Positions 19,940 through 52,959 are shown, numbered from the stretch's first letter. The stretch: 64,000 bases of DNA from Acidobacteria bacterium UBA2999 (GCA_002346475.1 DDZV01000005.1:2393-66392); one strand, 5' to 3'. Numbers and translations are program-made. Notes: generated from the sequence alone by a model not told the origin.

Positions 19940-20623
19940 TTATCTTGGGGGGAGAACCGCGTACTTAGTAAGGTCTTCTATTCCAGCGTTGGCAAATCCA
20001 TCTCGTCGTTCTCGACATTTACTACACTGACCACAATGATGCACGCCATCTGGATTCATACAAGACAACGTGAGCTCAAGTGGTACGTGCAAGGTAGCCC
20101 CTAGTCGAATAACATCAGGTTTGTGCATTGAGGCAAAGGGCGTGGCAATTTGAATCTTTGTAGAGAGTGCCAGTGAGAGAGCGTGAGCAATAGCATGAAA
20201 GAATTCAGGTGTTGCGTCAGGGAACGGATTTCCTGCCAACGATCCAAGCGCGATTCGCTCAATGCCATGCTGAGAACAATAGATTGCTGCTTTGCTAAGC
20301 AGGATGATATTACGGCCAGTTAGATAAACATCTTCATCTGGCGTGTCGAAGTCAGGCGGATTTCCACTTATAGCCCAATGTGTAGGGGGATAAAGATCGC
20401 TCACGCTGAAGAAGAGATTTACAAGTGGTCGAGCATGAGCGAGTGGTGGTGAATCAAGAATCGTAGTTAGAGCTTTTAATTCAGCTTTTTCCCAGGCTAG
20501 CCCTGTGCTTATGTAGAGTGGCTGCACGATCGATGCCTGTGCTTCCCTTGCAGCAAGCACTGTGCTATCAAGGCCTGCTGAAAGAAGAACCGCTGTTACA
20601 GTTTTATCCATTTCGCGTACCAT
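19940..20623 (-). CDS. queC: 7-cyano-7-deazaguanine synthase
   Basis: PP-loop-like LLSAGLDSTV and the C-terminal zinc cluster CMNPDGVHHCGQCSKCRERRDGF. Confidence 0.85.
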   Translation of the reverse strand: MVREMDKTVTAVLLSAGLDSTVLAAREAQASIVQPLYISTGLAWEKAELKALTTILDSPPLAHARPLVNLFFSVSDLYPPTHWAISGNPPDFDTPDEDVYLTGRNIILLSKAAIYCSQHGIERIALGSLAGNPFPDATPEFFHAIAHALSLALSTKIQIATPFASMHKPDVIRLGATLHVPLELTLSCMNPDGVHHCGQCSKCRERRDGFANAGIEDLTKYAVLPPR

Positions 20624-20675
20624 TAACTAACTTGACAGTTTACCGTGGTTTTAACAGGTAGTATTTGGAGCGACT

Positions 20676-21077
20676 ATGTATTCCGTTACTAAGCGTATTG
20701 AATTCTGTTATGGGCATCGTTTGCTTGATTACGATGGTATTTGTAAACATCCGCATGGGCATAATGCAATTGCCGAAATTGAAGTCCGCACGGATGTTCT
20801 TGATAATCGAAATATGGTTGTAGATTTTAGTGACATCAAACGCATGGTTAAGGGTTGGATCGATCGTGAACTCGATCACAAAATGATTTTACGTCATGAT
20901 GATCCTATGGTTGAGCCATTGAAAGCACTGGGTGAGCCATTATATTTATTGGATAGCAATCCGACAGTTGAACGTATAGCCCAGTTGGTTTTTGAGGTTT
21001 CTCGTAATGAAGGGTTGCCTGTAGTACGTGTTACTGTTTGGGAAACGCCAACATCTTGGGCCACCTACAGCGATTAA
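20676..21077 (+). CDS. queD: 6-carboxy-5,6,7,8-tetrahydropterin synthase
   Basis: 133 aa with the motifs FCYGHRL and CKHPHGHN of PTPS/QueD. Confidence 0.88.
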   Translation: MYSVTKRIEFCYGHRLLDYDGICKHPHGHNAIAEIEVRTDVLDNRNMVVDFSDIKRMVKGWIDRELDHKMILRHDDPMVEPLKALGEPLYLLDSNPTVERIAQLVFEVSRNEGLPVVRVTVWETPTSWATYSD

Positions 21078-21736
21078 TCGTTTTCGATCTTGATGGTACA
21101 CTGATTGACTCTCGGCACGATCTAGCTGACGCGGCAAATCAGCTTGTTAAGGAACTAGGCGGCACACCACTGGATCTGGATACAGTGACTCAAATGGTTG
21201 GCGGTGGCGCTGAAACTCTTGTAAGGCGAGCACTTCACGCTGCTGGTCTTCCTTCAGGGACTGAGAAAGAGCTAGAACGATTCCTTCAACTTTACGATAA
21301 TTGTCTTCTTAACCATACCTGTATTTATCCTGGACTAATCGAAACGTTGGTGCAGGCTAGCTGTCTCGCGACACTGTCTCTACTTACTAATAAACCGAGC
21401 GATCCAAGTGAGCGTATCCTTCGTGGGTTAGGGATCCGTAGGTTCTTCGATCAAGTCATTGGTGGAGATAGTCCATGGCCGCGAAAGCCAGACCCGACTG
21501 CATTGTTTCAGCTGATGGCAGCTGCTGGGACTGACCGTTCAAGGACATTGCTTGTTGGAGATTCGTATGTTGATCTTGAAACAGCTAGACAGGCTGAAAT
21601 ACCGTGCTGTTTAGTTTCGTACGGATTTGGTTTCCAAGGCGTTGATCAAGATCGTCTCGATGAGCAAGACTGTATTGCAGTTGATGCAGTTTCTCTTACT
21701 GCGGTGATTAAAAAATTTGTTCGTGAGTTTACCTAG
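21038..21736 (+). CDS. gph: HAD-family phosphatase (phosphoglycolate phosphatase-like)
   Basis: HAD motif I IVFDLDGTLIDS, motif II LLTNK and motif IV GDSYVD. The start is uncertain: the track start overlaps queD by 40 nt, and an in-frame TTG at 21056 is an alternative. Confidence 0.78.
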   Translation: MGNANILGHLQRLIVFDLDGTLIDSRHDLADAANQLVKELGGTPLDLDTVTQMVGGGAETLVRRALHAAGLPSGTEKELERFLQLYDNCLLNHTCIYPGLIETLVQASCLATLSLLTNKPSDPSERILRGLGIRRFFDQVIGGDSPWPRKPDPTALFQLMAAAGTDRSRTLLVGDSYVDLETARQAEIPCCLVSYGFGFQGVDQDRLDEQDCIAVDAVSLTAVIKKFVREFT

Positions 21737-21757: not shown

Positions 21758-22552
21758 TTATGGCTTTGTGCTAAATGGTAGTTCATACGAAAAATAGCCG
21801 AATGCTCCTACAGAGACTTGGTTTTTTGTAATGATTACTGGAACCGAAAACCCAAGGATTGTTTGTGTGTTACCTACGTTCCAACCCGTACGGAAACCAG
21901 GCGCCAAAGTCCACACGGTTGTCCAATTAGTTGCTTCGGCCTGAGCGTCTTCGAATTCAATAACAGCTTCGAGCATTGGCTGGAACATGGGGGAAGCTCG
22001 CCAGATATTACTTAAAGCTAGATGAGGTGTAAAAGTTTTATTGTCTTCGGAAGGTATGTGCGTGAAGCCTGCGTTCCAGTGTAGATAGCTGTTCCCCAAT
22101 TGCTTGCTGAAGGGTAGATTCAATTGCCATCCTGCAGTCCCTCCAAGGTTTTTTGAAGCACTTCCGCTAGGAAGGATTAGTGTGAGCCGAGGCGAGAACG
22201 CTGGCAGAGTAGCTGTCTCAGGCATTGCTTGTAATCGATAGTGTAGTTGTAAGTCGCCGACACCTTGGCCTAGGCCGGTAGTGCTATAAGGTACGGTGTA
22301 AGATAGCTGGTGACGCCAGCCGAGGAGTGGCCACTCCTGCGTAAAGGTTGTTTCCCATTCTGTACGATTCCGAAAGTTCACTCCAACAATATTCTGAAAG
22401 ATACCTGCTTCTTGGTTGAAGGCTTCTTCAACAAAAAAAGAATTGTCAAGCATTTCAAATGGTTGTGTCGTGTTACTACCCTTTGGAGCAGGTTGTGCGG
22501 CAGCAGGTAGTGCTAGCATTGCGAGCAGGATCAATGTTTGCGCTGCCCGCAC
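21758..22552 (-). CDS. Alternative reading: separately translated secreted/outer-membrane beta-rich protein starting at the internal GTG
   Basis: The in-frame GTG at 22552-22550 (codon 220 of the long ORF) would give MRAAQTLILLAMLALPAAA|QPAPKG, a textbook signal peptide. I see no obvious Shine-Dalgarno upstream (…ggcagcatcaaaattatta GTG). Confidence 0.35.
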   Translation of the reverse strand: MRAAQTLILLAMLALPAAAQPAPKGSNTTQPFEMLDNSFFVEEAFNQEAGIFQNIVGVNFRNRTEWETTFTQEWPLLGWRHQLSYTVPYSTTGLGQGVGDLQLHYRLQAMPETATLPAFSPRLTLILPSGSASKNLGGTAGWQLNLPFSKQLGNSYLHWNAGFTHIPSEDNKTFTPHLALSNIWRASPMFQPMLEAVIEFEDAQAEATNWTTVWTLAPGFRTGWNVGNTQTILGFSVPVIITKNQVSVGAFGYFSYELPFSTKP

Positions 22553-23209
22553 TAATAATTTTGATGCTGCCTGTGTTCCAATAGTGATGGTCTGGTGATT
22601 TTCTTTTCGTAGACGGACGCTGTCTGCTACTCCATCACGTGCTTCAACTTGAATAGATTGGCCAGGTTTTAAATCGTGATGTTCGAGAAATCTTAGAAAT
22701 GGTTTGTCTTGATCAATAACTCGAACAACTTTTACCTCAGTATCTAGAGGACATGTCAGAAGACTTTGTGTATTTTGTGGTTTTAAGGATCCTTTCGAGT
22801 CAGGAATCGGATCTCCATGAGGATCGGTAGCTGGACGACCTAACATTTCGTCCATTCGGTCAACCAGACGATCTGATACAGCATGCTCAAGCTGTTCGGC
22901 ATCCTCGTGAACTTCGTCCCATTTCAGTCCCATCACGTTGACCAAAAAAAGCTCAATGAGTCGATGCCTACGTAGGACTAGGGTCGCAAGTTTCTTACCA
23001 GCGGACGTGAGCATTACACCTGCATAGGGCTCGTATTCCACTAGTCCGGACTCAGCCAGTGTCTTGACCATTGTTGTCGCCGTACCAGGAGAAATATCTA
23101 ATGTCGCTGCAAGTTGACCCATCGGCAGGAGTCGTTGTTTAGGCTCTAGTCCTGCAGTGCCTTGGTAGATAGCTTTGAGATAGTCTTCAACAGTGCTTGA
23201 TGGGGACAT
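21758..23209 (-). CDS. DtxR/MntR-family metal-dependent repressor (HTH + dimerisation + FeoA/SH3 domain), continuous in frame with a signal-peptide/TM segment and a ~245-aa beta-rich domain (putative outer-membrane barrel-like)
   Basis: Residues 1-~222 form a DtxR layout: EDYLKAIY, TTMVKTLAESGLVEYEPY, RRHRLIELFL, HPHGDPIP and a FeoA-like end ...ITIGTQAASKLLV. This runs straight into RAAQTLILLAMLALPAAAQPAP. The remaining sequence is rich in aromatic/Gly alternation and ends GAFGYFSYELPFSTKP. The track shows one uninterrupted 483-aa ORF. Confidence 0.7.
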   Translation of the reverse strand: MSPSSTVEDYLKAIYQGTAGLEPKQRLLPMGQLAATLDISPGTATTMVKTLAESGLVEYEPYAGVMLTSAGKKLATLVLRRHRLIELFLVNVMGLKWDEVHEDAEQLEHAVSDRLVDRMDEMLGRPATDPHGDPIPDSKGSLKPQNTQSLLTCPLDTEVKVVRVIDQDKPFLRFLEHHDLKPGQSIQVEARDGVADSVRLRKENHQTITIGTQAASKLLVRAAQTLILLAMLALPAAAQPAPKGSNTTQPFEMLDNSFFVEEAFNQEAGIFQNIVGVNFRNRTEWETTFTQEWPLLGWRHQLSYTVPYSTTGLGQGVGDLQLHYRLQAMPETATLPAFSPRLTLILPSGSASKNLGGTAGWQLNLPFSKQLGNSYLHWNAGFTHIPSEDNKTFTPHLALSNIWRASPMFQPMLEAVIEFEDAQAEATNWTTVWTLAPGFRTGWNVGNTQTILGFSVPVIITKNQVSVGAFGYFSYELPFSTKP

Positions 23210-23238
23210 TACTTCTGTCAGTTTAACCGACCACTACC

Positions 23239-23290
23239 AGTCAAATCATTGACTTTTGCTTCTCATATATATAATTTTGACTAATCAAAA
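23239..23290. promoter_or_regulatory. Two 16-bp (6-4-6) perfect palindromes overlapping a sigma70-like promoter for the MCO-ZIP operon; candidate DtxR-family operator
   Basis: AGTCAA-ATCA-TTGACT at 23239-23254 and TTTTGA-CTAA-TCAAAA at 23275-23290. TTGACT (23249-23254) can serve as -35 and TATAAT (23270-23275) as -10, although the spacing is only 15 bp. The second palindrome ends on the A of the MCO ATG. Confidence 0.45.
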
Positions 23291-24345
23291 TGAGTTGGAG
23301 ACTTATTAATCGAAGAAAATGGCTTCATCTGACTGGTCTAGGTTCGCTGGCTAGTGGATTACTTCAGGGCACTCGACTTGCTGGACAGGTACCTAAGAGC
23401 CAAAGCCATTTATCCGAAAAACATATGGCTGGGGCCATGGGCACTGTTGGCCAGGTGTCATCAATGGATTTTAGTCCTACAAATTTTCTTCGGAGTTGGA
23501 ATTTTTCTGACATGCCGTTACCTGATCGGAATCAGTACTATCGAGAGACGCCAAGACCAGATGGTACGTTGTTTCGGGAATATGAACTCTATGCTTCCGA
23601 TCGTGAGATAGAGATTGCACCTGGAATTTTCTTCCCTGCCTGGACTTTTAATAATCAGGTCCCTGGTCCTACACTGAGAGCAACAGAAGGCGATCGAGTT
23701 CGAATTAATTTTAGAAATCTTGGTTCACACCCTCACACTATCCATTTTCATGGTTGGCACCCACCGGCGATGGACGGTTCATTACCAGGTCAAGAAGTTG
23801 AGCCTGGAGAGACATTTGTGTACGAATTTGATGCAGAGCCATTTGGTTTACATTTGTATCATTGTCATGCGGTGCCTTTGAAACGCCATATCCATAAAGG
23901 TTTGTACGGCACATTCATCGTAGACCCAAAATCAAAAAGAACAGTGGCTGATGAAATGGTGATGGTGATGAACGCCTTTGATTCTAACTTTGATACAGAG
24001 AACGAAGTTTACGCTGTTAACACAGTAGCAAATGCGTATATGCGTGAGCCAATACGAGTTAATGTTGGACAGCTGGTGCGCATCTATTTGGTTAACTTGA
24101 CAGAATTCGATTTGATTAACAGCTTACACCTGCACGGCATGTTTTTTGATGTGTACCCGACTGGTACATCACTCAAACCATCACTGAACACGGACACGCT
24201 TATGTTGTGTCAAGGTGAGCGGGCCATTATTGAGACTACTTTTCGTTATTCAGGTGATTTTATGTTCCATGCCCATCAGAGTGAATTTGCCGAGTTAGGG
24301 TGGATGGGGCTCTTCCGGGCTGAGGAACAGCATGATGTCGCCTAA
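23290..24345 (+). CDS. Tat-exported two-domain multicopper oxidase (T1 copper site in domain 1; NirK-related type)
   Basis: Tat leader NRRKWLHLTGLGSLASG. The copper ligand motifs occur in the order HTIHFHGWH, LYHCHAVPLKRHIHKGL, HLHGMFF, FHAHQSEF. 351 aa fits two cupredoxin domains. Confidence 0.85.
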   Translation: MSWRLINRRKWLHLTGLGSLASGLLQGTRLAGQVPKSQSHLSEKHMAGAMGTVGQVSSMDFSPTNFLRSWNFSDMPLPDRNQYYRETPRPDGTLFREYELYASDREIEIAPGIFFPAWTFNNQVPGPTLRATEGDRVRINFRNLGSHPHTIHFHGWHPPAMDGSLPGQEVEPGETFVYEFDAEPFGLHLYHCHAVPLKRHIHKGLYGTFIVDPKSKRTVADEMVMVMNAFDSNFDTENEVYAVNTVANAYMREPIRVNVGQLVRIYLVNLTEFDLINSLHLHGMFFDVYPTGTSLKPSLNTDTLMLCQGERAIIETTFRYSGDFMFHAHQSEFAELGWMGLFRAEEQHDVA

Positions 24346-25543
24346 TCAAATGATAGTTCGTAATAATCTTTTTTTAGCACTGCTGCCACTAGTGCTTCTT
24401 GGTTGTGTGCTTGCTTTACTTGTTTGGTCACCTTCCACAGAAATTTTTCAGGTTCCCGGCACACCACCTGTTGAGCAATTAACATTTCAGCGTGTCGTGT
24501 TGGATGATGATGGCATTGTGGCAACAGTACTCAATGATGGCCCAGATTCAGTCACGATTGCCCAGGTACAGGTAGACGATGCTTTTTGGATGTTTGAGGC
24601 TAGTAATGGACAAGTCATTGGTCATCTTGGCCGTACGGCACTGCGTATTCCCTATCCTTGGATAGAAGGAGAAGCACATCTACTGAGAGTCCTTACTTCG
24701 ACAGGTGCAACATTTGAGTATGTAATATCGGTAGCTGTAGAAACACCAAAGCCCAGTGTTAGATTATTTGGAGTTTTTGCGTTGATTGGGATCTACGTTG
24801 GTGTGTTACCAGTAGCCATTGGCTTGCTATGGTTTCCTTTTTTAGCACAACTTTCTTCCAGAAGCATGGATTTCTTATTGGCATTAACAGTCGGTCTATT
24901 AGTCTTTCTATTTGTTGATGGATCACATGATGGCCTGGAACTAGCTACGGCATTACCGGAGTCGTTTCAAGGGGCTACTTTGTTTATTGTCGCAACTGCT
25001 GGTGCCTTCTTGTTGCTCGAAGCTGTTAGTGGCTGGCTTCGTGTCAGACGTTACAGATCGACTACTGAATCTAGTAACAGTGCCTGGGTTCTTGCGGTCC
25101 TCATTGCTATTGGGATTGGACTGCACAATTTTGCTGAAGGCTTGGCAATTGGCTCTGCATTTGCTCTTGGCGAAGCTACTTTTGGGATTCTCCTAATTGT
25201 AGGTTTCACTTTACACAACACAACTGAGGGTCTGGCAATTGTTGCGCCTCTTGCTCGAGCACATGTCCCTGTACGTGTCATACGGTTAATCCAGCTTGGG
25301 CTAATCGGCGGCCTTCCAACGATTGCTGGGGCTTGGCTCGGAGGTTTTGTGTACTCACCAGTGTGGTCAGTTTTTTTTCTTGCCTGCGGTGTAGGAGCAA
25401 TTGGGCAGGTTGTTACGCAAGTTACTCGTCAAATAGTCGGTACAAAATCTGTTGTTGGTGAATTAGCTAGTGTGCCAGTTCTGGGAGGACTTGTGACGGG
25501 TTGTGCTGTTATGTATGTCACAGGAATGATTGTGGGGGGATGA
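24332..25543 (+). CDS. ZIP-family divalent metal permease with ~115-aa extracytoplasmic N-terminal domain
   Basis: ZIP signature helices HNFAEGLAIG and HNTTEGLAIV. There is one N-terminal TM helix, then a soluble segment, before the ZIP core. 14-nt overlap with the MCO gene. Confidence 0.85.
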   Translation: MMSPNQMIVRNNLFLALLPLVLLGCVLALLVWSPSTEIFQVPGTPPVEQLTFQRVVLDDDGIVATVLNDGPDSVTIAQVQVDDAFWMFEASNGQVIGHLGRTALRIPYPWIEGEAHLLRVLTSTGATFEYVISVAVETPKPSVRLFGVFALIGIYVGVLPVAIGLLWFPFLAQLSSRSMDFLLALTVGLLVFLFVDGSHDGLELATALPESFQGATLFIVATAGAFLLLEAVSGWLRVRRYRSTTESSNSAWVLAVLIAIGIGLHNFAEGLAIGSAFALGEATFGILLIVGFTLHNTTEGLAIVAPLARAHVPVRVIRLIQLGLIGGLPTIAGAWLGGFVYSPVWSVFFLACGVGAIGQVVTQVTRQIVGTKSVVGELASVPVLGGLVTGCAVMYVTGMIVGG

Positions 25544-25630
25544 GTATTTTTACTCGGCGTTAGGGATCGTTCTAAGAGCGCAGTAGTTTTTAATTTTTTT
25601 TTTGGTTTTAGTCCAGGCTATATTGATTAG

Positions 25631-26050
25631 GTGGATCTAGATAAATCTCGTTGGTCCGGCGAAGGGCAATTTACTGAAACGCTCATTGAGGCATTAAAAG
25701 CACTTCAATCAATATCCTATCTGCTTGTCGAAGACGCGCCTGCAACTCGATCAGACGCGGACTACAATTTCATCAGCAATGAGATGTTTGTGCGGTTTCA
25801 GACGAAACAAAGCATTGAACGTAGGAAATGGATGGGGATCATTCCAGTTCGACGAACGTTCTTACTGCCAGTGATGACGCTTGCCGATCTAGGGAAGTCT
25901 TTTGTTGAGACTGAGACGGTTGGAGAACCTGATTATATCGATGAGGGAATGATTCAGTTTTTAAAGTCTGAACGAATCATTCCACCATATCAGACTAGAG
26001 GTTATAAACTCGTAGAGCTTGTTCGTATCTACGAAGTAAAGGACTCATAA
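25631..26050 (+). CDS. Hypothetical soluble protein
   Basis: 139-aa ORF with a GTG start, no TM helix and no motif I recognise. Confidence 0.4.
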   Translation: MDLDKSRWSGEGQFTETLIEALKALQSISYLLVEDAPATRSDADYNFISNEMFVRFQTKQSIERRKWMGIIPVRRTFLLPVMTLADLGKSFVETETVGEPDYIDEGMIQFLKSERIIPPYQTRGYKLVELVRIYEVKDS

Positions 26051-26105: not shown

Positions 26106-27236
26106 ATGAAGAAACTTGTACTAGTCGCATTGTTGATGGCAAGCCAAGCGCTTGTGTACTCAGCGGATGAACTGCCACTGGAGCAGATCACATTGCCGGC
26201 AGGTTTTACGATCGATGTTTATGCTTCGGATATTCCGTTTGCTCGAGAGATGGTGCTATCGCCTTCGGGCACACTTTTTGTAGGTTCGAGAAATTTTGGA
26301 AAAAAAGAAGGCACAAATGTTTATGCCGTGCTCGATACCGACCAGGACCAGAAAGCAGACGAAGTCTTAATTATTGCGAGTAACCTTTTAAGTCCAAATG
26401 GTGTGGCATTTCACAACGATGCTCTTTATGTAGCTCAGCAGAACCAGATACTACGTTTTGATGATATTGAAACTAAACTCAAGAATCCTCCTGAACCAGT
26501 AGTGGTTGCTGAAGTGCCTGGTGAACCTGCACATGGATGGAAGTTCATAGCATTTGGACCAGATGGCAAGCTCTATGTTCCCGTTGGAGCACCTTGCAAC
26601 GTTTGTAATAGACGGGATGATGACCCACGTTTTGCTACGGTCCTTCGTATGAACCCAGACGGATCAGATGTTGAGATTGTTGCACATGGTGTTAGAAACT
26701 CTGTGGGCTTTGACTGGCATCCAGTGACTGAGGAGTTCTGGTTTACAAGTAATGGACGCGACATGCTTGGAGACAATCTTCCGCCAGACACTTTGAATCG
26801 AGTATCTACGGTAGGCATGGATTTCGGGTTTCCTTTCTGTCACGCAGGGGATTTGCCAGATCCCGAGTTTGGACATATTCATTCGTGTGGGGACTTTACA
26901 CCACCAGCCCAGAAACTTGGACCACACGTTGCTTCACTTGGAATGACCTTCTATACCGGTGCTATGTTTCCATCAAAATACCGAAACCAGATTTTCATTG
27001 CTGAGCACGGTTCGTGGAATCGAAGTCAAAAGATTGGATATCGTGTCACGCTTGTGCAATTAGACATGAACAGCGAAGCAATCTCATACGAACCATTTGC
27101 AGAAGGTTGGCTTAATGGTCAGGATAATTGGGGTCGCCCCGTAGACGTTTTAGTAATGCCAGACGGTGCTCTCCTTGTATCAGATGATCAAACAGGTACG
27201 ATTTATCGTATTAGTTATGCAAGGGGCAATTCTTGA
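26106..27236 (+). CDS. Periplasmic PQQ-dependent sugar (sorbosone/aldose) dehydrogenase-like beta-propeller
   Basis: Signal peptide MKKLVLVALLMASQALVYSA. The layout is YliI/sorbosone-dehydrogenase-like (PNGVAF, HGVRNSVGFDWHP, DNLPPDTLN, FIAEHGSWNRS). Confidence 0.78.
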   Translation: MKKLVLVALLMASQALVYSADELPLEQITLPAGFTIDVYASDIPFAREMVLSPSGTLFVGSRNFGKKEGTNVYAVLDTDQDQKADEVLIIASNLLSPNGVAFHNDALYVAQQNQILRFDDIETKLKNPPEPVVVAEVPGEPAHGWKFIAFGPDGKLYVPVGAPCNVCNRRDDDPRFATVLRMNPDGSDVEIVAHGVRNSVGFDWHPVTEEFWFTSNGRDMLGDNLPPDTLNRVSTVGMDFGFPFCHAGDLPDPEFGHIHSCGDFTPPAQKLGPHVASLGMTFYTGAMFPSKYRNQIFIAEHGSWNRSQKIGYRVTLVQLDMNSEAISYEPFAEGWLNGQDNWGRPVDVLVMPDGALLVSDDQTGTIYRISYARGNS

Positions 27237-27346: not shown

Positions 27347-28315
27347 TTGTCAAACATGAGTAGTTTCGTTTCCGAACCACGCAGTGTTGTTTCCGTTGTT
27401 GACCTAATAGGCAATACGCCACTTGTGCGGCTTTCTCGTTTTGAGAAGGGTCTTAATAAAGTCAAGCTTTATGCAAAGCTTGAAGGAAAAAACCCTGGTG
27501 GCTCAGTTAAGGACCGTCCAGCAGTTCGGATGATTGCTGAGGGTGAACGGTCTGGGGCTCTTCGCCCTGGGAAAATAATCTTGGATGCAACATCTGGCAA
27601 CACTGGGATTGCCTACGCGATGATTGCAGCATCACAACAGTATCCCGTCAAGTTGTGCATTCCTGACAACGTTAGTTTGGAGCGGAAACGTATTTTGCGT
27701 GCTTACGGTGCAGACCTTGTAATGACAAATCCACTCGAAGGTTCCGATGGTGCCATTCGCATGGCGCGGCACTTGTATGCAGAAACGCCAGACGTGTACT
27801 TTTATCCTGATCAATACAATAACGATGCGAATTGGCGTTCCCATTTTGAAACAACAGGACTTGAAATTATTAAACAAACAAGTGGAGCATTGACGCATTT
27901 TGTTACAGGTCTTGGTACGAGTGGAACTTTCATGGGTGTAGGGCGCCGGCTTCGTGAGTACAACTCGTCAATTCGTTTAATTTCGATGCAACCTGCTGAG
28001 GCTCTGCATGGTCTTGAGGGTTTAAAACAGATGGAGTCTGCAATTGTTCCTGGCATATATGATCCAGAACTGGCAGATGAGGATATTCGGATTGGTACGG
28101 AAGAAGCGTACGAAACAACTAGACGCTTGGCTAGAGAAGAAGGCTTACTAATAGGTATTTCTGGCGGAGCTAATTTAGCTGCTGCTTTGCGTATTGCCCG
28201 CGAGACATCAGACGCTGTGATTGTCACAATTTTTTGTGACAATGGTGATAAGTACTTATCCGAGCGCTTCTGGGACGAATCGATAAAAAATTCCTCGTTG
28301 AAGGGGACTTCGTAA
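27347..28315 (+). CDS. cysM: Cysteine synthase, CysM type (PLP-dependent)
   Basis: PLP lysine context NPGGSVKDRPA and the SGNTGIA loop. The track start is TTG 27347; ATG 27356 is an alternative. The stop overlaps the next start (TAATG). Confidence 0.85.
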   Translation: MSNMSSFVSEPRSVVSVVDLIGNTPLVRLSRFEKGLNKVKLYAKLEGKNPGGSVKDRPAVRMIAEGERSGALRPGKIILDATSGNTGIAYAMIAASQQYPVKLCIPDNVSLERKRILRAYGADLVMTNPLEGSDGAIRMARHLYAETPDVYFYPDQYNNDANWRSHFETTGLEIIKQTSGALTHFVTGLGTSGTFMGVGRRLREYNSSIRLISMQPAEALHGLEGLKQMESAIVPGIYDPELADEDIRIGTEEAYETTRRLAREEGLLIGISGGANLAAALRIARETSDAVIVTIFCDNGDKYLSERFWDESIKNSSLKGTS

Positions 28316-28746
28316 TGGCTCTTAAATTTAGTTCACGCGTTGCAGATGCCATTCGACAGCATGGAACAGAGACGTACCCGAACGAGTGTTGTGGGGCTTT
28401 AATTGGGAATGATGGTATTGTTCATAGAGCGGTGGCTTTGCCCAATAAAACTGAAGAGGGTCCAAGAAGACGTTTCCTAGTTCGACCTCAAGATTATCGA
28501 GAGGCAGAGCAGACGGCCTCTGATTCCGGCGTCGAGTTACTTGGGTTCTATCATTCTCATCCGGACCACCCCGCTCGTCCATCAGAGTACGATCTCAATC
28601 ATGCTTGGCCTTTCTTCTCCTACGTGATTGTTTCAGTTCGTGATGGAGTGCCTGGTGATATGACTTCCTGGCGGTTGCTTGATGATCGTTCTACTTTTAC
28701 TGAAGAAGATTTATTAGAAACTATTGAGGCATCTCGAAAGATATGA
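28315..28746 (+). CDS. mec: JAMM/MPN+ metalloprotease (Mec-type CysO hydrolase)
   Basis: JAMM motif E(CCG)...HSHPDHPARPSEYD. 143 aa. Confidence 0.85.
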   Translation: MALKFSSRVADAIRQHGTETYPNECCGALIGNDGIVHRAVALPNKTEEGPRRRFLVRPQDYREAEQTASDSGVELLGFYHSHPDHPARPSEYDLNHAWPFFSYVIVSVRDGVPGDMTSWRLLDDRSTFTEEDLLETIEASRKI

Positions 28747-29024
28747 CAAAAGTAATGATTCCTACTCCGTTGCGGCCTTTTACAGATAAGCAAGATGCCG
28801 TAGAGATCACTGGTAGCACAGTCGGCGAAATTCTTACTCAGTTGACTGCGAAGCATGAAGGTTTGCAAAAGCACCTATATAACGAGGATGGCAAGTTGCG
28901 AAGCTTTGTCAATATTTACCTCAACGACGAAGACATTCGTTATTTACAACGTGAAGAGACCCCTGTGAAGTCAGGTGATACCCTTAGCATTATTCCATCT
29001 GTTGCTGGTGGAGTTCCTCAGTGA
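28743..29024 (+). CDS. cysO: ThiS/MoaD-family sulfur carrier (CysO-like) with C-terminal GG followed by a 3-residue extension
   Basis: 93 aa, beta-grasp size, ending ...SIIPSVAGGVPQ*. ATGA overlap upstream and GTGATG overlap downstream. Confidence 0.8.
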   Translation: MTKVMIPTPLRPFTDKQDAVEITGSTVGEILTQLTAKHEGLQKHLYNEDGKLRSFVNIYLNDEDIRYLQREETPVKSGDTLSIIPSVAGGVPQ

Positions 29025-46399: not shown

Positions 46400-46630
46400 A
46401 AGGAATAAACGCTAGGGCCAGGTTTCCTGACTTGCAGATTCTTACGATTTGGTTAGTCTTCCCATGTTCTACAGTGCTGGTGATAAATTTAGCAATGCTG
46501 TAGCACGGACCATGATAGACCCGTTATACACAGTGACTTATATGACCAAGATCTTTCTGCTTACAGTGGCGGGACCGTGTGGGCATTAAACCCACTTCCC
46601 TGTTCCCTTACGGTATCAGTTGTAGCTATC
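46400..46630 (-). promoter_or_regulatory. Cobalamin (B12) riboswitch
   Basis: The minus-strand RNA contains AAGGGAAC, a GUGGGuuuaauGCCCAC hairpin, ACGGUCCCGCCACUGU, CACUG...GGGAAGAC, and the B12 box AAGUCAGGAAACCUGGCC (forward coordinates 46416-46431). A downstream hairpin TCACGA-n8-TCGTGA (46378-46397) and the SD AAGGGGAGA precede the receptor ATG. Confidence 0.8.
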
Positions 46631-46661
46631 AGTATAGCACGTTAAAATTTCAAGCGATTCC

Positions 46662-52882: not shown

Positions 52883-52959
52883 GCGCCCTTAGCTCAGCTG
52901 GATAGAGTGTCTGGCTACGAACCAGGAGGTCGCAGGTTCGAATCCTGCAGGGCGCGCCA
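52883..52959 (+). tRNA. tRNA-Arg (anticodon ACG), CCA encoded
   Basis: Folded by hand. Acceptor stem GCGCCCT/AGGGCGC; D arm GCTC-AGCTGGATA-GAGT; anticodon stem TCTGG/CCAGG with loop CTACGAA; T arm GCAGG-TTCGAAT-CCTGC; discriminator G followed by CCA. Confidence 0.93.

Follow-up and report, generated by a model that had tools for sequence, protein, structure and literature searches.

The DNA considered here is a window of 64,000 nt from the genome of Acidobacteria bacterium UBA2999 (DDZV01000005.1:2393-66392), in which positions 21758-25543 hold genes for a multicopper oxidase (MCO), a ZIP permease and, divergent from both, a DtxR/MntR-type repressor whose open reading frame (ORF) runs on into an exported beta domain (Table 1). 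The oxidase and permease reading frames share 14 nt, and the ZIP ATG has a GAGGA Shine-Dalgarno sequence 5 nt upstream. An earlier note, made from the sequence alone, had described these three ORFs, the overlap and the divergent repressor with its added domain, and a check of the reading frames agrees with it on each point. That note called the locus four-part, which omits a cupredoxin gene that follows the ZIP gene in most relatives, making the module five-part there, and that has been deleted in this genome. The G+C content of the window is ∼46 per cent, and the best homologues come from metagenome-assembled genomes of Acidobacteriota, notably Vicinamibacteria.

Table 1. Features of the locus, with positions counted from the first nucleotide of the window.
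Feature	Positions	Strand	Remarks
Repressor-barrel ORF	21758-23209	-	483 aa
Outer-membrane beta-barrel domain (predicted)	21758-22495	-	aa 239-483; COG4313/FapF-type 12-strand channels
Internal signal-peptide-like segment	22496-22549	-	RAAQTLILLAMLALPAAA; aa 221-238, then conserved AxA/Q signal-peptidase-type site
DtxR/MntR-type repressor part	22550-23209	-	aa 1-220; winged-helix, metal-binding/dimerization and SH3-like FeoA domains
Palindrome AGTCAA-N4-TTGACT	23239-23254	+	TTGACT, the -35-like box of the MCO promoter, forms its right arm (23249-23254)
Palindrome ATTTTGA-N4-TCAAAAT	23274-23291	+	candidate repressor operator; follows closely on the -10-like TATAAT and reaches into the MCO start codon
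Multicopper oxidase	23290-24345	+	351 aa; two-domain MCO with Tat signal, type C (predicted)
ZIP permease, GufA/ZupT-like	24332-25543	+	403 aa
Periplasmic Ig-like beta-sandwich of the permease	24479-24730	+	aa 50-133 (model)
Cupredoxin gene remnant	25540-25585	+	ATG, seven codons and TAG (25540-25563), then the last few codons of the gene

A two-domain oxidase and a permease with an added domain

Pfam recognizes two cupredoxin domains and no more in the oxidase (Cu-oxidase_3 at aa 116-215 and Cu-oxidase_2 at aa 238-346), and the protein aligns over its full length to two-domain structures, the closest being PDB 7rab (5e-109) and 3gdc (5e-96). More distant are the archaeal MCO4 Nmar_1354 (9cck), matched at 4.5e-53, and the copper nitrite reductase structures, matched at ∼1e-26; in all, more than 8000 clusters of homologues fall below 1e-20. 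The copper ligands lie at H149-x2-H152-x-H154, H191-C192-H193 and H200 in domain 1 and at H280-x-H282 and H327-x-H329 in domain 2, and all are invariant in 24 homologues, so that the ligand order HxxHxH, HCH, HxH, HxH and the placement of the type 1 (T1) copper site in domain 1 stand as first described. The T1 ligands are H149, C192 and H200, with Leu205 probably the axial residue, and the trinuclear cluster draws on H152/H154, H191/H193, H280/H282 and H327/H329. Judged from this distribution, the enzyme should be a type C two-domain oxidase, with its T1 site in domain 1 and its trinuclear histidines split between domains 1 and 2; by analogy it may form a trimer with the trinuclear clusters at the subunit interfaces. 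The twin arginine R8-R9 is nearly invariant in 24 homologues (N-terminus in the window INRRKWLHLTGLGSLASG, consensus SRRSWLQATGLGSLAG) and is followed by a hydrophobic stretch, in keeping with the signal for twin-arginine translocation (Tat) noted earlier and with predicted export by that route.

The structures 7rab and 3gdc, which share with this protein two cupredoxin domains, a T1 site in domain 1 and the HxH/HCH/HxH/HxH pattern, have no assigned function, and a search of the literature found no paper mentioning 7rab. Nitrosomonas europaea 3g5w and Nmar_1354 are more distant type C two-domain oxidases. Assignment to the nitrite reductase NirK or to the laccases was rejected: the protein reaches 96 bits with TIGR02376, whose cut-off is 296, it has every ligand of the trinuclear cluster, and the structures of two-domain oxidases match far better than NirK (1e-109 versus ∼1e-26). 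A grouping with characterized nitrite reductases or laccases, which the earlier note had named as an outcome contrary to its proposal, was thus not found, the protein grouping instead with the uncharacterized 7rab and 3gdc.

The 403-aa permease matches the Pfam Zip family only over residues 247-339, but its C-terminal 260 residues align to BbZIP by sequence (1e-5) and by Foldseek (1.5e-7), and the transport-site motifs HNFAEG in transmembrane (TM) helix 4 and HNTTEG in TM5 align to HNLPEG and QDVPEG of BbZIP. The match to the ZupT model (3.5e-10) falls below the equivalog cut-off. Sequence and model together place the protein among the ZIP permeases, in the GufA/ZupT subfamily with an 8-TM core at aa 143-402, and not among the FTR1/EfeU permeases that are recognized by REXLE motifs.

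In the AlphaFold model (predicted local distance difference test score, pLDDT, 85) residues 4-32 form a TM helix, which a disordered linker joins to a beta-sandwich of seven strands at 50-133, and the ZIP core starts at 143; this bears out the earlier proposal of an extra extracytoplasmic N-terminal domain. The extension is present in 120/120 of the best ZIP homologues and holds the invariant motifs NDGPD, Q78/Q80/D82, H98, PYPW and H116; Pfam has no match for it. BbZIP and ZupT share the 8-TM core and the HNxxEG motifs, whereas the additional TM helix and the ∼85-residue periplasmic sandwich are found only in the oxidase-linked subfamily.

Conservation of the pair

Synteny beyond the source genome had been set beforehand as the test of the proposal. 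A profile scan for the oxidase, with one genome per species, gave matches in at least 594 genomes, and the best 80 loci from these were joined with six metagenome loci to form a set of 86. In 86/86 loci both the N-terminal domain and the core of the ZIP permease are encoded immediately downstream of the oxidase, and a ZIP start codon overlapping the oxidase stop is available in 68 of 83. The loci span at least eight phyla (Acidobacteriota, Gemmatimonadota, Latescibacterota, Poribacteria, Marinimicrobia, TA06, Chloroflexota, here Caldilineaceae, and DPANN archaea), with Vicinamibacteria, Thermoanaerobaculia and Terriglobia represented among the Acidobacteriota, and DPANN and Methanosarcinales metagenome-assembled genomes among the archaea. 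The N-extended permease is also found on 153 plasmids, and all five that were inspected (from Rhodococcus qingshengii, Deinococcus sp. D7000, Shinella sumterensis, Sinorhizobium meliloti and Rubrobacter marinus) carry the oxidase directly upstream. Synteny therefore extends well beyond the source genome, through the 86 loci and the inspected plasmids alike, and by gene order and overlap the oxidase and permease are an obligate and translationally coupled pair.

A further archaeal case separates the N-terminal domain from the permease. The oxidase of Nitrososphaera viennensis, encoded in host DNA beside the provirus Pro-Nvie1, is 51.5 per cent identical to that of the window, and used as a query it lies closer to 3gdc (9e-110) than to 7rab; that match puts the enzymes of archaea and bacteria in a single tight family. 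Directly after it comes a stand-alone gene for a 135-aa TM-anchored homologue of the ZIP N-terminal domain (L087 1039-1446), and in the N. viennensis stretch no ZIP core follows. This stand-alone domain is the best available hint that the N-terminal domain is the partner of the oxidase. The next gene is precorrin methyltransferase-like, as judged by eye only.

A regulator of the manganese type

Residues 5-221 of the 483-aa ORF match the Pfam families Fe_dep_repress, Fe_dep_repr_C and FeoA, and the repressor part ends in a conserved ...AASKLLV. Its closest solved relatives are the manganese sensors Mtb MntR (5zr4, 6e-42), DR2539 (8pvt), SloR and ScaR, and Foldseek likewise returns Mtb MntR (5zr6) at 3e-18 with a TM-score of 0.9, while the Fe-type regulators IdeR and DtxR are more distant in both sequence and fold. 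The DtxR/MntR-type assignment first made from the sequence is upheld by these comparisons. At the positions of DtxR Met10 and Cys102 this regulator has Asp (in EDYLK) and Glu (in DAEQLEH), and the pattern is general: Asn or Asp at the first position and Glu at the second occur in 41/41 linked regulators scored, and the Fe-type Met/Cys pair in 0/41.

Gene neighbourhoods in other lineages bear on the same question. Five Gemmatimonadales loci have the order DtxR-Nramp-MCO-ZIP-barrel, three DPANN loci (Woesearchaeota) have MCO-ZIP-Nramp, and the Deinococcus plasmid has DtxR-Nramp divergent from MCO-ZIP. In Shinella and S. meliloti it is a small regulator of the E. coli type, named MntR by PGAP, that is divergent from the pair. 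Recruitment of two different manganese-sensor subfamilies would be hard to explain otherwise, and so the pair probably belongs to a manganese regulon. By ligand pattern and fold the regulator should be a manganese-type member of the DtxR family, for which Mn(II)-dependent binding is predicted. The metal had earlier been given as iron or manganese; the regulator type, the ligand pattern and the Nramp neighbours favour manganese, and iron is the less supported of the two.

The shared promoter and its candidate operator

Both of the perfect palindromes previously reported on the shared promoter are found in the 80-bp spacer between the divergent genes. In an alignment of 45 spacers two elements are kept: TTGACT at the -35 position and, ∼17 nt on, TAT-ATTTTGA-N4-TCAAAA. 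The TTGACT box is common to the acidobacterial loci, and the left arm of the first palindrome is kept only in relatives of 95 per cent identity (L004-L006), so that this palindrome is mostly a -35 box with a lineage-specific left arm.

The second palindrome has a wider distribution, the exact sequence TTTTGA-N4-TCAAAA standing directly upstream of the oxidase start in 34 of the 86 loci. Within the single window it is not beyond chance (0.57 occurrences expected with one mismatch allowed), and the case for an operator therefore rests on conservation across loci. Its position over -10/+1 is typical of a repressor operator, and TTTTGA-N4-TCAAAA may accordingly be regarded as a conserved candidate operator at the oxidase promoter. 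In the window it runs into the oxidase ATG, which implies a very short leader. In marine Vicinamibacterales (L016, L019, L021, L023, L025, L029, L031, L041 and L045) a second conserved element, AAACTGTCAATGACTCAAA, stands between the operator and the oxidase start, a few bases downstream of the former.

A second operon beside the regulator likewise has this operator motif upstream in L003, L008, L015, L018 and L048; in L015 and L018 the copy upstream of the oxidase is a one-mismatch variant and the copy before the second operon is exact. The second operon thus looks like a further member of the regulon. It lies at 2487-5165 in L003, 1161-3897 in L008, 2376-5164 in L015 and 2201-4974 in L048, where the regulator is unfused to a barrel, and it encodes Porin_O_P-like and di-haem peroxidase-like (DHOR) proteins; in three of these four loci, L003, L015 and L048, a cupredoxin is encoded between the two. 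Given that the operator also stands before this porin, cupredoxin and di-haem peroxidase operon, the regulon would be rich in periplasmic redox proteins.

These features recall the MntR/DtxR-MntH regulons (5zr4, DR2539 8pvt/8pw0, SloR, ScaR), which have the three-domain fold and Mn-type ligand pattern of the present repressor and a palindromic operator over the promoter of the importer; an Nramp gene is in the cluster in several phyla. They differ in that the importer under regulation here is the oxidase-ZIP pair, and in that the repressor ORF is fused to a barrel in many Acidobacteriota.

The repressor-barrel reading frame

No stop codon separates the repressor from the beta domain in the window. 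The last ∼260 aa of the 483-aa ORF have no significant Pfam match, and alone they give a sub-threshold hit to Phenol_MetA_deg (PF13557, E 0.47). The AlphaFold model of the whole ORF (pLDDT 86.6) nevertheless consists of a DtxR fold, a linker at 226-246 with pLDDT below 50 and a closed barrel with pLDDT above 90, and Foldseek matches the barrel to FapF (5o68) at 2.8e-9. There is an AAA/Q site before the barrel and a conserved YSYELPF near its C-terminus. Of the 4039 homologous clusters of the barrel domain, most are stand-alone exported proteins of 255-295 aa, and some have a PF13557 match or bear the name 'transporter' or 'outer membrane beta-barrel porin'. By model and homology, then, the beta domain is predicted to be a 12-strand outer-membrane barrel, which substantiates the earlier suggestion that a beta-rich domain with a signal peptide supplies an outer-membrane component. 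It resembles the FapF/COG4313 (PF13557) channels in predicted fold and differs from them in falling below the Pfam threshold and in being encoded in frame behind a cytoplasmic repressor.

The junction is not peculiar to this genome. It lacks a stop codon in 21/21 species-level genomes in which the barrel gene comes after the regulator gene, and the barrel is in the same frame in 19 of these, one lineage with an in-frame internal barrel deletion included; L011 and L051 are frameshifted at the junction. Regulators without a barrel terminate 1-9 codons past KLLV. About 20 of the best 150 cluster representatives at 50 per cent identity cross the junction, and fusions account for ∼30 per cent of the gene calls among the best 120 homologues of the barrel. 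The arrangement ...AASKLLV, n-region, hydrophobic stretch of 10-14 residues and AxA/Q is kept in divergent homologues, with A238 and Q239 nearly invariant. A sequencing or assembly error was considered and set aside, as the same 483-aa ORF is present in three independent metagenome contigs and the stop-less junction recurs at ∼50 per cent identity. In L001/L002 (4984-5892) an in-frame internal deletion of the barrel gives a 302-aa regulator that still has the signal peptide, ∼50 residues from the N-terminal end of the barrel and the YELPF motif at the C-terminus.

A lost cupredoxin and other electron carriers

In relatives the ZIP gene is followed by one for a membrane-anchored cupredoxin of ∼131 aa with a complete His/Cys/His/Met site. 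The window retains the two ends of that gene around a clean 349-bp deletion with its junction between 25571 and 25572, the missing segment being 6758-7106 of L004 (blastn, flanks 94-96 per cent identical), and the gene is intact after ZIP in the 94-96 per cent identical contigs L004 and L006. A tblastn search with the L004 cupredoxin found no other cupredoxin in the 64-kb window. With the gene deleted here and no second cupredoxin elsewhere in the window, the small electron carrier is best seen as an accessory that is frequent but dispensable. In Nmar_1354, which oxidizes hydroxylamine, the cupredoxin is fused to the oxidase (PMC11761707), whereas in relatives of the present locus it is a separate gene.

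Plasmids of actinobacteria have a gene for a Rieske (2Fe-2S) protein just downstream of the pair, directly after ZIP in Rhodococcus (L088 8053-8472) and one gene further on, past a DoxX gene, in Rubrobacter (L091 7835-8296); in acidobacteria it is the cupredoxin gene that comes immediately after ZIP. A small one-electron carrier is in this sense a recurrent neighbour of the oxidase-ZIP pair.

Neighbouring genes in the window

Downstream of the module, positions 25631-26050 hold a 139-aa ORF without a family match that is kept in close relatives, and adjoining it at 26106-27236 is a gene for a beta-propeller protein with a signal peptide (DUF7133/GSDH, with a partial match to a PVC-type haem-binding family below the cut-off). 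From 27347 to 29024 and beyond there follow genes for a cysteine-synthase-like protein dependent on pyridoxal phosphate, for a protease of the JAB/MPN type and for a sulfur carrier resembling ThiS; in L004 this cluster goes on with a ThiF-rhodanese protein, an Rrf2 regulator and a cysteine desulfurase. We take the cluster to resemble the CysM/Mec+/CysO pathway of cysteine synthesis by way of a protein thiocarboxylate.

On the other side, at 19940-21736, lie divergent queC and queD-like (PTPS) genes and then a HAD phosphatase, a flank that is kept beside the module in the distant Acidobacteriota L001, L003 and L004. Rfam gave no manganese riboswitch in the window, its only matches being a cobalamin riboswitch (46400-46648, minus strand, 76.8 bits) and a tRNA, tRNA-Arg(ACG), at 52883-52959 on the plus strand.

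Discussion

An oxidase beside a ZIP permease is not without precedent. MCO1 with an adjacent ZIP permease is a recognized genomic marker in ammonia-oxidizing archaea (PMC5817080), the pair being traced to Kerou et al. 2016 as that work is cited in PMC7785015 and PMC5817080, and Reyes et al. proposed a Fet3/Ftr1-like role in copper uptake for it and reported modest induction under copper limitation (PMC7785015). The earlier claim that there is no characterized pairing of this kind must be narrowed to that extent: the adjacency was already known in archaea, and it is biochemical characterization that no member has received. The archaeal pair resembles the present one in that a two-domain oxidase with a trinuclear cluster and a T1 axial Leu stands beside a ZIP permease with a proposed Fet3/Ftr1-like role, and the N. 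viennensis oxidase matches the same PDB entries. It differs in having been known from archaea alone, in its link to copper, and in coming without a described regulator, outer-membrane channel or cupredoxin; at the single N. viennensis locus that was read, moreover, the oxidase is followed by the stand-alone N-terminal domain instead of a full ZIP. Literature searches for a bacterial MntR-MCO-ZIP operon or a fusion of DtxR to an outer-membrane protein returned nothing relevant, and neither the module in bacteria nor its regulator nor the fused ORF is described in any paper found. New here are the Mn-type regulator, the conserved operator, the 12-strand barrel, the stop-less junction of repressor and barrel, and the cupredoxin deletion.

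There is reason to think that the module is a manganese-regulated, oxidase-linked system of metal uptake, a reading to which we would give a probability of roughly 0.55. The Mn-type repressor would bind TTTTGA-N4-TCAAAA over the -10/+1 region of the oxidase promoter and keep the operon off as long as cytoplasmic Mn(II) is sufficient, and scarcity of manganese would derepress it, so that channel, ZIP importer and oxidase are made. Metal ions might then be admitted through the 12-strand outer-membrane channel, and the ZIP permease would import a divalent cation, most likely Mn(II), as does the bacterial ZIP protein TmpA, a manganese importer (PMC8844249). The periplasmic Ig-like domain of the permease could serve as a docking platform for the Tat-exported, trimeric oxidase, which would use O2 to oxidize redox-active ions at the mouth of the permease. 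A membrane-anchored cupredoxin would be the fifth component in most relatives, replaced by a Rieske protein in actinobacteria and lost in this genome.

What the oxidation accomplishes may be asked separately. Fe(II) and Cu(I) are the classical substrates of multicopper oxidases, and the step that we prefer, although it is at best a tentative suggestion, is that of a gatekeeper by which the oxidase removes those Fe(II) and Cu(I) ions that compete for the manganese importer or poison it. Such a protective role is favoured because ZIP permeases carry divalent cations, which makes Mn(III) and Fe(III) unlikely substrates, and because it reconciles manganese regulation with residence in copper islands. 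It is also possible that an oxidized product is handed to the permease as in Fet3/Ftr1, for which oxidation of Cu(I) to Cu(II) would be chemically simplest, or that manganese oxidation concentrates manganese at the cell. The last possibility draws on analogy with Pseudomonas putida, in which oxidase-dependent manganese oxidation raises intracellular manganese (PMC3798386).

The obvious comparison is with Fet3p-Ftr1p and the bacterial EfeUOB/FTR1-type systems, which have in common with the present locus an obligate pairing of oxidase and permease and co-expression under metal limitation. Fet3p, however, is a three-domain oxidase with a membrane anchor, in contrast to the two-domain type C enzyme found here beside a regulator that points to manganese, and the oxidized ion is unlikely to be the transported species in this case unless it is Cu(II). 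Although much work has been done on ZIP transporters and on multicopper oxidases alike, we know of no ZIP permease that works with a partner enzyme.

Several considerations weigh against manganese uptake by such a route. Transport, metal specificity and a complex of the two proteins are, for every member of the family, things that we infer, and the metal selectivity of a DtxR-family regulator is not readable with certainty from its sequence. ZIP permeases are usually dimers and two-domain oxidases trimers, a mismatch of stoichiometry for any complex. A gatekeeper oxidase would not obviously require strict physical coupling, and if a product were instead handed to the ZIP permease, only oxidation of Cu(I) to Cu(II) would yield a divalent cation. 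The fold search with the N-terminal domain was uninformative, returning generic beta-sandwiches (FlaF/FlaG, pilins, PCuAC and CopC, E 0.004-0.4). On plasmids the pair is often found in copper-homeostasis islands with CopD, PCuAC, SCO, CopZ and CsoR-like genes, and the response reported for the archaeal pair, mild as it is, is to copper limitation (PMC7785015).

These last points are the strength of the copper-acquisition hypothesis published for the archaeal pair, in which the oxidase converts Cu(I) to Cu(II), the ZIP permease imports it, and the cupredoxin and Ig-like domain act as copper-handling partners. The N. viennensis oxidase belongs to the same tight family, the plasmid copies reside in copper islands, and the oxidation would yield a divalent cation, within the range of a ZIP permease; the weak fold matches of the N-terminal domain to PCuAC and CopC (E 0.2-0.4) lean the same way, but they are generic and not significant and were not used as evidence of copper binding. 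Against this, the dedicated regulator is always of DtxR/MntR type with Mn-type ligands, to our knowledge no copper-sensing DtxR exists, and Nramp, a manganese and iron importer, shares the operon in three lineages, and copper acquisition is on balance improbable. Iron uptake of the Fet3p/Ftr1p kind, with a ferroxidase passing iron to the ZIP permease through its periplasmic domain, seems less probable again. It would account for the obligate oxidase-permease pair and its translational coupling, the T1 site of Fet3p has an axial Leu such as Leu205 probably is, and ZupT-type permeases carry Fe(II); also, some DtxR-like regulators with Mn-type ligands, MtsR among them, respond to iron as well (PMC6698748). 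Yet Fe(III) is no known substrate of ZIP permeases, which carry divalent cations, and both the absence of the Met/Cys pair from the 41 regulators scored and the greater distance of IdeR and DtxR speak against an iron sensor. The oxidase might, finally, be uncoupled from transport altogether, a periplasmic protective or laccase-like enzyme serving in copper or oxidative-stress defence and sharing a metal-regulated operon, and family members in Rhodococcus are indeed treated as laccase-like oxidases (PMC13613843). The operator before the porin-cupredoxin-di-haem peroxidase operon of several Acidobacteriota suggests a broader periplasmic redox or defence regulon of the kind such an enzyme would belong to, but co-regulation alone does not predict adjacency in every one of the 86 loci, overlapping frames or an extra domain specific to the permease, and that domain also occurs alone beside the oxidase in an archaeon; we consider this explanation as unlikely as that of iron.

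The stop-less junction raises a question of its own. With no stop codon, every repressor molecule must be translated on into the barrel, and the possible outcomes are a precursor cut at the internal signal peptide or a fusion that is tolerated alongside a barrel translated from an internal start. The former would make the 483-aa ORF a genuine polyprotein, repressor and outer-membrane channel being translated as one piece, with the internal signal peptide sending the C-terminal half to the Sec machinery, signal peptidase cleaving after AAA238, the barrel continuing to the outer membrane, and the repressor either released or anchored for a short time at the inner membrane through the signal peptide. 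The cytochrome b/c1 polyprotein FbcH of Bradyrhizobium japonicum is cleaved at an internal signal peptide in this way and likewise gives a cytoplasm-facing and an exported product from one ORF; both of its products, however, are membrane-bound and belong to a single complex, whereas here one would be a DNA-binding repressor and the other an outer-membrane barrel. The polyprotein is an attractive possibility that falls short of being probable. Somewhat more doubtful is that repressor and barrel are made separately, the barrel from the GTG at V220 (22550-22552), and that the missing stop is without function. That codon is the only plausible internal start in the window, a GTG is found at the junction or two codons before it in most fused genes (at V220 itself in 14/20), and a start there would give a canonical signal peptide, MRAAQTLILLAMLALPAAA followed by Q. 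Conservation of the open frame is then no proof of a selected fusion, since a start inside the last strand of the repressor leaves no room for a stop. However, the internal GTG has no Shine-Dalgarno sequence, whereas the ZIP start has one, and in L037, L034 and L012 no codon ahead of the hydrophobic core could serve as a start, so that among the fused genes neither a conserved internal start nor a Shine-Dalgarno sequence at the junction is universal; and the translation of each repressor through the barrel is left in place by this explanation.

The pair is widespread, with thousands of metagenomic protein clusters, and occurs in abundant Acidobacteriota of soil and sea, in Gemmatimonadota and nitrifying archaea, and on conjugative plasmids. 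Were the oxidase to condition or channel metal for the ZIP permease, this would be a new principle of metal selectivity in ZIP transport, and a function would be at hand for the orphan structures 3gdc and 7rab and for the long-unexplained archaeal MCO1. Manganese-type regulation redirects the copper-centred archaeal hypothesis, and does so in a form that is testable in culturable Deinococcus, Sinorhizobium, Shinella and Rhodococcus. If the repressor-barrel ORF is processed as a polyprotein, it would be an unusual case in which one translation product yields both a transcription factor and an outer-membrane protein; repressor and channel would be made in a fixed one-to-one ratio, and the activity of the repressor could depend on secretion. 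Taken with the obligate pairing of the oxidase and the ZIP N-terminal domain, such a polyprotein would, if true, represent an undescribed way to build a metal-uptake pathway.

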